Assembly: GCA_944391585.1 (NCBI GenBank)
Contig: CALXUD010000002.1
Coordinates: 1-46,595, forward strand
Direction of reading: 5' to 3'
DNA: 46,595 bases
From: an uncultured Alphaproteobacteria bacterium
GTDB lineage: Bacteria; Pseudomonadota; Alphaproteobacteria; CAAHEQ01; UBA3637
Positions 27,902 to 28,956 of this stretch are shown here, piece after piece. The position numbers and the translations under genes are program-made. Below the pieces are notes generated by a model. That model was not told the DNA's origin, did not search any database, and worked only from the letters and a program-made list of their open reading frames with translations. The first letter of the stretch is position 1; every line of letters starts with the position of its first letter.

Positions 27902-28342
27902 TTATTTGTTTTCTGGTGAAAAATAATATAAGACATCAAAAAAACGCGGCAATTGCAGCAATGTGGCGTAAGTGTATCGGCAAATCAATTCATATTGTTT
28001 GGTTTGACCGTTATAAAGAAGTAATGTTTCAGGAGCATTACCAATAATCAACTTTCCCTTCAGTAATGGATTTTGGATATGTTGTTCCGCTTCGGTGACC
28101 AAAGAGGTGTGAGAAAATGCCCCATTTCCCCGTTCATGCGATTGAACACCATAAAGCTCCACGCCGTTATAAGAAAGACCATCTGTTTCTTGAAGAAAAG
28201 AGAGGTAATCTGTTGGAATTTTAGAAAAACCGTTTTTTACCAAAGCAACTGAGAGTTTTTGAATGGTAAGCGCCTCACAAGGTGGAAAAAAGACGGCGTA
28301 GTTTTCATGCATTTGTTTTAAAACTTGATGAATCAGTTTCAT
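27902..28342 (-). CDS. SUKH/SMI1-KNR4-like immunity-type protein
   Basis: 146 aa. The pattern TIQKLSVALVKNGFSKIPTDYLSFLQETDGLSYNGVELYGV ... LIIGNAPETLLLYNGQTKQYELI matches the SUKH-1 layout (LP.dY..FL...nG, then a late hydrophobic-G block). Confidence 0.55.
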   Translation of the reverse strand: MKLIHQVLKQMHENYAVFFPPCEALTIQKLSVALVKNGFSKIPTDYLSFLQETDGLSYNGVELYGVQSHERGNGAFSHTSLVTEAEQHIQNPLLKGKLIIGNAPETLLLYNGQTKQYELICRYTYATLLQLPRFFDVLYYFSPENK

Positions 28343-28353
28343 GGCTTTTTCCT

Positions 28354-28956
28354 TTAACGTCCCGGCATATTTTTAATGGCAATTTCTTTAAAAGCGCTTT
28401 GACTAAATCCGGCATATACGCTGCGATCATGTTTACCCTTACCACCCGAACCGGTAAAAGAAGTTAAGGGAATATAAATTCGTCCAACTGGGGTGGGGAC
28501 ATATAATTTTTCTGGGAAGGAAACTCCTGTTTCCGTTAATATTTGTTTTGCTACATAGGTATGAATTAAATCATGAAATGGATGGCTTTGCATTAAAACC
28601 ATGTTATTGAAATCAATACTGCCGCCATAGTGCAGCGGGTACTTTAAATGGACGGTATAGTTCTCAGGCAAAATTCCTTTTTTGATATAAAAAATACCCT
28701 CTTCCGAAATACCTGCCGCTCGCAAATCCATAACATAGTGATATCCTAAATAGCGAATAAAATCCTTACTGATGCGGCGGAATAATTTATAGCTTTCCAG
28801 CTGTGTTTCGGGTTCAAGACCAAAATAGTGAACTTCCATTAAATCCATACCGGGGAAATTCGTTTCATTAAAAACACTTTCCCAAAAAGCCTGATTTCGG
28901 TCTTCTGGATTTTCAGGGAGTTTTAAATCAGATAAATTGGTTTTTAAACTAGCCAT
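28354..28956 (-). CDS. HNH (beta-beta-alpha-Me) nuclease-fold protein, candidate toxin/effector
   Basis: Residues 100-135, YTVHLKYPLHYGGSIDFNNMVLMQSHPFHDLIHTY, are colinear with the HNH pattern H-x-x-x-P-x-x-x-G-G-x4-5-N-hhLh-x4-H-x3-H. The start overlaps the coupling-protein stop by 8 nt. Confidence 0.5.
   Translation of the reverse strand: MASLKTNLSDLKLPENPEDRNQAFWESVFNETNFPGMDLMEVHYFGLEPETQLESYKLFRRISKDFIRYLGYHYVMDLRAAGISEEGIFYIKKGILPENYTVHLKYPLHYGGSIDFNNMVLMQSHPFHDLIHTYVAKQILTETGVSFPEKLYVPTPVGRIYIPLTSFTGSGGKGKHDRSVYAGFSQSAFKEIAIKNMPGR

Follow-up and report, generated by a model that had tools for sequence, protein, structure and literature searches.

The question raised by this locus is why two genes with the appearance of a nuclease toxin and its immunity partner directly follow the gene of a VirD4-like coupling protein. 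The locus lies in a stretch of 46,595 nucleotides (nt; positions 1 to 46,595 of contig CALXUD010000002.1, hereafter the window) from an uncultured alphaproteobacterium of the chicken gut. A first-pass annotation made from the sequence had described a 200-amino acid (aa) open reading frame (ORF) with an HNH motif, a 146-aa ORF with the layout of SUKH proteins, a VirD4 gene as their neighbour and an 8-nt overlap, and all of these were confirmed in the sequence. The two ORFs are called H and S, and the gene upstream of virD4 is called M:

28949-31171, (-) strand: gene of the VirD4-like coupling protein, 740 aa, with Pfam domains and Walker motifs
28354-28956, (-) strand: H gene, 200 aa, assigned by profile to HNH toxin-domain descent, general-base His absent
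27902-28342, (-) strand: S gene, 146 aa, SUKH superfamily (YrhA/SMI1-KNR4-like)
31181-32239, (-) strand: M gene, coding for a membrane-anchored protein with a C-terminal NERD-like domain

The favoured answer, at a probability of about 0.45, is that H and S are an exapted toxin-immunity pair that now forms a non-catalytic accessory or adaptor module of the VirD4 coupling protein in a VirB/D4-type type IV secretion system (T4SS) of gut Alphaproteobacteria. A more demanding form of this answer is held more tentatively: an HNH domain and its SUKH partner would have been captured together, the toxin disarmed, and both turned into obligatory subunits of a type IVA coupling complex with the NERD-derived M, an architecture that would be previously unrecognised.

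By profile comparison, H is a descendant of an HNH (beta-beta-alpha-metal) toxin domain of polymorphic toxin systems. Its HNH-like motif, VHLKYPLHYGGSIDFNNMVLMQSHPFHDLIH, occupies residues 102-132. Homologues of H numbered 151 at E ≤ 1e-3, all from uncultured Alphaproteobacteria of animal guts. The conservation of motif residues on which the first-pass annotation had staked its proposal was found in 37 diverse H sequences, in which eight residues (H103, K105, P107, Y110, G112, N118, Q123 and P126) were invariant and H128 and H132 were at least 90% conserved. A profile of the H family (alignment A1) retrieved 556 proteins at E ≤ 1e-3 among 1.84 billion representatives, with matches at the extreme C-termini of an RHS protein (P0190, 2.6e-17), a Mu-portal protein (P0196, 7.6e-17), a MuF protein (P0202, 2e-16) and a PT-HINT protein (P0206, 3e-16). 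Assignment of H to the HNH family was upheld by these toxin C-terminus matches, at 1e-15 to 1e-17, and by the similarity of H (BLASTP, 36% identity over 106 residues, E 5e-17) to an orphan toxin C-terminus, ending in ...WQVHHKIPLDGGGTNDFSNMVLIQNEPYHKVL, at an RHS toxin locus of the Firmicute isolate Bovifimicola ammoniilytica. The toxin relatives carry a VHHK...N...H motif and are followed by SUKH genes; against Pfam HNH (PF01844) they scored 17-20 bits, below the cut-off of 21.4, over G[YW]QVHHKLPLDDGGTNDF.NLVLI. H itself had no match in Pfam, NCBIfam or PADLOC, and nothing relevant was found with the family profile among PDB sequences.

The fold was considered for the following part of H:

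28540-28659, (-) strand: beta-beta-alpha core of H (residues 100-139), with H103, L104, N118, H128 and H132

The AlphaFold2 (AF2) model of H had a predicted local distance difference test score (pLDDT) of 83 overall, and placed strands at residues 100-104 and 119-123 and a helix at 124-139, with a core pLDDT > 90. Foldseek searches of the model in PDB and BFVD returned no significant match; the weak ones were enriched in HNH domains, with Cas8-HNH 8ydb_J (probability 0.63), the Gme HNH 4h9d, the NmeCas9 HNH and many phage HNH proteins. In the hidden Markov model and structure searches suggested at the outset, the family profile and the predicted strand-strand-helix were in favour of an HNH domain, and neither a curated HNH profile match nor a significant Foldseek match was obtained. 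Because the profile matches on toxin scaffolds, the Bovifimicola similarity, the AF2 strand-strand-helix and the HNH-dominated weak Foldseek matches agreed, H was taken as a genuine member of the HNH toxin-domain superfamily. H is a stand-alone protein of 200 aa, lacking the trafficking, repeat or pretoxin modules that make up the architecture of P0190, P0206 and P0202. Ahead of the conserved domain, H orthologues carry a low-complexity N-terminal region of ~20 to >170 residues (alignment A1, columns 1-170), which is shortest in H of the window; the H orthologue of locus L075 has 371 aa and a long Pro/Gln/Tyr-rich N-terminal extension.

S is, as judged from profile matches, a descendant of the SUKH immunity proteins that follow HNH toxins. 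The layout first noted (IPTDYLSFLQETDG, residues 42-55 of S, and LIIGNAP..LLLYNG, residues 98-112) was borne out by a match to NCBIfam YrhA (NF038335, 56.5 bits, cut-off 55) and by SMI1_KNR4 matches (E < 0.01) in 13 of 31 S orthologues. Matches of S itself to Pfam SUKH_5 and SMI1_KNR4 were weak and below threshold, and its sole PDB sequence match was weak (2icg, Lin2918, E 0.8). Active toxins of the HH form were directly followed by a SUKH gene in all three cases in which the neighbourhood was read, and alignment of the S profile with those three SUKH proteins (hhalign) gave probabilities of 94.3% (E 1e-7), 96.0% (E 4.5e-9) and 98.1% (E 7.5e-14), the highest for a protein annotated as SMI1_KNR4. 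Since the S profile matched all three toxin-adjacent SUKH proteins, H and S appear to have been inherited together from a toxin-immunity pair.

Compared with the polymorphic HNH/EndoVII-fold toxin domains of RHS, PT-HINT and MuF proteins, H was homologous over ~130 residues, including K105, P107, the GG, N118 and H128, and a homologous SUKH partner stands downstream in those systems as S does after H. The differences are that H has Leu in place of the general-base His, has acquired H132 as a further His in the helix and a basic tail of 35 residues, and is without an N-terminal delivery or pretoxin module, and that the pair is non-polymorphic, being a fixed orthologue in the VirD4 operon under what appears to be purifying selection.

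Through the core, H and the toxins aligned without gaps (TVHLKYPL against QVHHKLPL). Among 150 representatives, the toxins (85) showed HH at positions 103 and 104, and 41 showed His with L, I, M or V after it, including all VirD4-linked forms; residue 104 was L, I or M in every VirD4-linked relative, and the L104 codon in the window is TTA at 28645-28647. In a weak alignment with the colicin E9 DNase (hhalign, E 0.063, 33 columns), H103 was paired with H102, L104 with H103, N118 with N118, H128 with H127 and H132 with H131; in E9, H102 is a metal ligand and H103 the general base. The HNH spacing, in which Pro stands three residues after the catalytic His, likewise put the catalytic position at L104. 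His103, which had been proposed as the catalytic His, therefore aligned with a metal ligand, and the general-base position fell on Leu104. The H-N-H core of the colicin E9 and E7 DNases is colinear with H at the same spacing, and the His triad of H corresponds to the transition-metal ligands of E9, whereas the general base of E9 stands where H has Leu104; the E9 immunity protein Im9 has a different fold and is not a SUKH protein. From the H103/L104 register given by the toxin alignment and by E9, the H family kept the scaffold and the metal-binding set (H103, H128, H132 and the structural N118, equivalent to E9 H102, H127, H131 and N118) and lost the water-activating residue. In other HNH enzymes, equivalent base losses (colicin E9 H103A, Cas9 H840A) abolish cleavage. 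H is probably a pseudo-nuclease without its water-activating residue, and would be unable to cut DNA.

In deeper relatives (P0164, P0165, P0173, P0175, P0186 and others) H103, H128 and H132 were all lost, with IMLK in P0165 and MILR in P0175, and P0175 still had a downstream S orthologue (34% identity). Because relatives without any metal ligand still keep SUKH, the SUKH partner cannot be there to neutralise a nuclease. This bears directly on the reading of the first-pass annotation, that H works as an HNH DNase toxin for delivery to competitors, with S as its immunity protein. That reading draws on the homology of H to bona fide HNH toxin domains and of S to their SUKH immunity proteins, and on the conservation, within the gut clade, of the structural Asn and of the His residues that would bind the metal. 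The base is nevertheless Leu, Ile or Met throughout the VirD4-linked members, and polymorphism, cassette arrays and pretoxin or trafficking domains were absent; each species had a single orthologue, with a dN/dS (ratio of nonsynonymous to synonymous substitution rates) of ~0.07. With the base lost, the cassette fixed in ~60 species, apparent purifying selection, and SUKH kept by relatives that have no metal ligands, the toxin-immunity reading was not supported, and an active toxin was judged very unlikely.

The distribution of the genes was that of a fixed cassette. A scan of species-representative genomes returned 61 loci; apart from the toxin locus of the Firmicute and a few contigs that are probably mis-binned, all were from uncultured gut or rumen Alphaproteobacteria. 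The cassette M-VirD4-H-S was carried by ~60 species, in the same order wherever the contig reached far enough, with one orthologous H-S pair per species and neither variable tips nor cassette arrays; the flanks varied between species. Tight coupling of the H and S genes to virD4, as first proposed, was present in the window, where the H start codon (28954-28956) and the VirD4 stop codon (28949-28951) overlap by 8 nt, H and S are separated by 11 nt, and AGGA precedes the S start; coupling of virD4 and H was general, from overlap to a gap of a few bases. Identity of the orthologues to the window protein was 69-83% for VirD4, 47-65% for H, 27-52% for S and 27-48% for M. More divergent lineages kept the cassette, with VirD4 still 61-70% identical and H ~29-45%.

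Median dN/dS (pairwise NG86 estimates) was 0.046 for VirD4, 0.074 for H, 0.103 for S and 0.216 for M, and ~0.03 in the closest pairs for H and S alike, values that are rough because dS was near saturation. They suggest that the H-S pair is under strong purifying selection, with no sign of an arms race. Transcript data were uninformative: in two RNA runs from chicken gut, only scraps fell on virD4 and M, and H and S had no coverage. Three contigs with the cassette (L012, L055, L064) are labelled as 'Lactobacillales bacterium' metagenome-assembled genomes or Holdemanella biformis, probably by mis-binning or mislabelling.

The coupling protein itself scored 178.5 bits with Pfam T4SS-DNA_transf, 79.4 with TraG-D_C and 67.7 with TrwB_AAD_bind, and gave only partial VirD4/TraG matches in NCBIfam. 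It has a Walker A motif (PPGTGKT), a Walker B motif (VLFVLDEF), hydrophobic N-terminal transmembrane segments and an acidic C-terminus (net charge -9 over the last 45 residues), and the acidic tail was present in all lineages. Its closest plasmid-borne type IV coupling proteins (T4CPs), from Erythrobacter and Sphingosinicella, shared only 32-33% identity with it; the complete virB clusters to which they belong contained no homologue of M, H or S. When all loci were searched with the VirB proteins of the nearest plasmid cluster, L029 proved to carry VirB10 (TrbI, 111 bits) and VirB11 directly upstream of the cassette. In L075, a gene upstream of the cassette (649-aa protein) had a weak match to VirB6/TrbL; the 46.6-kb window had no VirB channel genes. 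The VirB10 of L029 (22-4305) is unusually large, with 1427 aa and seven beta-flower repeats (Bflower_2, E 2e-40) before the TrbI domain. Gene content thus suggests that the lineage has VirB/D4-type genes, apparently scattered, and that the cassette is its coupling-protein operon.

An ATPase flanked by nuclease-related domains could also be thought of as an anti-phage or anti-plasmid defence system with nuclease-like effectors, and VirD4 had a weak PADLOC match to mad8 (E 2.9e-5). H, S and M had no PADLOC match, however, and the locus is core, syntenic and vertically inherited, with VirD4 ~70% identical across species, not patchy like defence islands, and is linked to virB10/virB11 in L029. Its distribution and conservation rule this reading out for all practical purposes.

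The part of H that has no counterpart in its toxin relatives is its tail:

28357-28461, (-) strand: C-terminal tail of H (residues 166-200), sequence TGSGGKGKHDRSVYAGFSQSAFKEIAIKNMPGR

The toxin relatives stop at about H residue 163, without the tail. In H, the tail is nearly invariant (pattern TGSGGK.K.DRS...MPGR), ends in Arg, and was invariant at G169, S170, G171, G172, K173, K175, D177, S179, G183 and G199; residues 166-184 had pLDDT < 50 and are predicted to be disordered, and residues 161-200 are basic (isoelectric point 10). Certain deep VirD4-linked H proteins (e.g. in L068) are without it. The motif was found solely in H orthologues, and in no other protein, across 1.05 Mb of related loci, and the tail was for that reason rejected as a shared secretion signal. 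No clear pattern emerged when the VirD4 C-terminus and the H tail were compared for co-variation of charge.

Such a tail raises the possibility that H is a translocated T4SS substrate, with S as its cytoplasmic chaperone or keeper, VirD4 reading the tail, and H acting in the recipient by binding DNA or a target protein and not by cutting. The H gene directly follows virD4, in translational coupling, the tail is new, disordered, basic, Arg-ending and absent from the toxin relatives, and VirB10/VirB11 and VirB6-like genes occur in the lineage. In Agrobacterium, the effector VirD5 is encoded right after virD4, and VirE1-VirE2 are a chaperone-effector pair. Invariance at 10 positions, however, goes far beyond the needs of a charge-based signal, the tail recurs in no other protein of the related sequence, and the deeper VirD4-linked H of L068 does without it. 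H was also more conserved (53-63%) than the membrane partner M (31-35%), which is unusual for an effector, and without the catalytic His the activity that an effector would most obviously have is gone. Translocation of H was considered rather unlikely.

M, a membrane protein of ~350 aa, is predicted to have a pair of long hydrophobic helices at its N-terminus, a linker that is basic and of low complexity, and a NERD-like domain of the restriction-endonuclease fold at its C-terminus. Its true start is probably the ATG at 32212, since an identical database protein has 343 aa. Across 194 homologues (alignment A2) the signature D233..GDWL.DEE..F..PLWFSE..HR.SP was invariant, with D233, D238, E243, E244, E256, H259 and R260 as the invariant acidic, His and Arg residues. 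The AF2 model of M had a pLDDT of 84.8, and its top Foldseek matches in PDB were all PD-(D/E)xK nucleases: NucS 2vld_B (probability 0.99, E 0.012), SfsA, Cdn1/Card1, R2 RLE and Hjc. The M homologue P0378 passed Pfam NERD (31.7 bits, cut-off 22.1), and M of the window had no Pfam match. Relative to NERD and PD-(D/E)xK proteins, M shares a predicted restriction endonuclease-like fold and differs by its membrane anchor and the invariant GDWLADEE...PLWFSE..HR.SP motif; the first Asp of PD-(D/E)xK was not conserved, and the Lys position was Glu, Gln or Asp. The M gene was immediately upstream of virD4 at every locus that reached that far. In L075 (7695-9869) two tandem M paralogues lie upstream of virD4, the first very divergent (19% identity).

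An optional fifth member of the cassette lies just upstream of M:

32306-32578, (-) strand: gene of a ribbon-helix-helix (RHH) protein, 90 aa

The RHH protein matched Pfam RHH_4 (67.8 bits, cut-off 25), and its gene was also found upstream of M in L001, L029 and L074 and was absent from L003. A 184-aa DnaJ-domain gene (32690-33244, (+) strand), divergent from the cassette, is a conserved neighbour, found likewise in L001, L029 and L074. L074 is otherwise syntenic with the window, apart from a prophage-like block (132-6772; T7-type capsid, head-tail connector, nozzle-like protein and S24 peptidase repressor) beside DnaJ-RHH-M-VirD4.

With two nuclease-derived folds and an RHH protein around a VirD4-family DNA translocase, and with M rich in invariant acidic, His and Arg residues, the cassette could be a unit for processing and pumping DNA, in which a complex of the RHH protein, M and H, similar to a relaxosome, would make DNA ready for VirD4, and M, or M with H, would nick it. 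Accessory factors of relaxosomes are typically RHH proteins, and the fold of MOBC relaxases is that of restriction endonucleases. The substitutions at the PD-(D/E)xK positions of M and the missing base of H speak against this, as do the absence of a relaxase, an oriT or any mobile-element context from a cassette placed among housekeeping genes and the absence of the RHH gene from some species. A relaxosome-like role was regarded as improbable.

In the favoured reading, that of an exapted accessory module, a toxin-immunity pair would have been captured, the toxin disarmed, and the heterodimer retained in a VirD4-linked role that needs no catalysis. What was observed for the pair is its homology, the lost base, the joint inheritance of S with H, the conserved gene order and the constraint; its binding, docking and role are what we infer. 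H may still bind S through the old toxin-immunity interface, and the heterodimer could dock on VirD4, perhaps by the basic tail of H with the acidic tail or the all-alpha domain of VirD4. Docked H-S would act as an adaptor or regulator in the recruitment of substrate or DNA, and may work alongside the membrane-anchored, NERD-like M and, in many species, the small RHH protein.

Several points weigh against an accessory role. The H-S pair was away from virD4 in L073, beside clpB and hupB, and in L072 a degenerate H directly followed an M-like gene, so that linkage of H-S to VirD4 is strong and not absolute. No virB genes were seen near the cassette outside L029 and L075, and the dN/dS values are subject to the saturation noted above. 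The basic, disordered tail of H would fit a VirB/D4 translocation signal equally well, and the well-conserved H-H-H/N set in the gut clade may support metal-dependent chemistry with another base.

Among known systems, the T4CP of Legionella Dot/Icm offers a parallel in logic, not in ancestry. The VirD4-family protein DotL carries the accessory subunits DotM, DotN and IcmSW on its tail (PMC7280309). The adjacency of dotM and dotL resembles that of M and virD4, with a membrane protein that has a cytoplasmic domain encoded beside the ATPase, and the small soluble partners that bind the DotL tail have ~150-200 aa, as do H and S (PMC7280309). Unlike DotL, VirD4 of the window is type IVA-like, with its best matches among VirD4/TraG models and alphaproteobacterial virB clusters. 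Homology of H to DotN was rejected (hhalign probability 0.2 for the H profile against DotN, 5x1h_A; no Pfam link of DotN to HNH); a resemblance of DotN to a degenerate HNH finger was not borne out by hhalign or Pfam, and DotN was kept as a functional analogy only.

The X-Tfe/X-Tfi pairs of the Xanthomonadales T4SS (X-T4SS) likewise combine a toxin-derived protein and a cognate inhibitor in a VirB/D4 locus, with VirD4 recognition proposed for H as well. Recognition of X-Tfes is attributed to a C-terminal XVIPCD domain (PMC8740702). X-Tfes act as toxins and vary from strain to strain, and their XVIPCD has ~120 aa, whereas H is conserved, appears to be catalytically disabled and has a tail of only 35 residues. 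The literature search found no paper that links VirD4 with HNH or SUKH partners or describes this cassette, and nothing relevant on DotN with HNH or on RF32 with T4SS. The cassette is best placed as a variation on HNH/SUKH toxin-immunity pairs and T4CP accessory proteins, and does not constitute a new category.

The surroundings of the cassette in the window are ordinary chromosome, with genes for SecA, FtsY, MiaB, PhoH-YbeY-CorC, FtsEX, AnmK, Bat/VWA and AcrAB. The genes anmK ((+) strand, ending at 27900) and S ((-) strand, ending at 27902) are convergent; because their stop codons are one base apart, there is no intergenic space for terminators on either strand. Elsewhere in the window, a single 632-aa ORF (9019-10917, (-) strand) combines a FliF C-terminal segment (YscJ_FliF_C) with complete FliG N, M and C domains, and resembles a fusion of FliG with FliF or with a truncated FliF; FlhF-like (7809-8708) and FlhG/MinD-like (7063-7812) genes adjoin it.

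Toxin-immunity pairs are usually regarded as fast-evolving weapons, and H-S appears to be retired, with its base gone, its position beside VirD4 fixed in every species of a lineage and its constraint like that of housekeeping genes; what was once a weapon seems to have become a lasting component of the secretion apparatus. Fixation across a lineage of a base-less HNH domain with SUKH beside VirD4 would surprise specialists in T4SS and polymorphic toxins, and it cautions annotators that motif-level calls of 'HNH toxin + SUKH immunity' can be right in homology and wrong in function. If H-S, with M, belongs to the coupling complex, type IVA systems would gain a layer of accessory subunits like that of Legionella DotL, and the pair would clearly exemplify how a pseudo-nuclease and its inhibitor can find new use in contacts between proteins. 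There would then also be a handle on substrate recruitment in those uncultured gut Alphaproteobacteria that have the pair, often met with in gut metagenomes of chickens, ruminants and humans.

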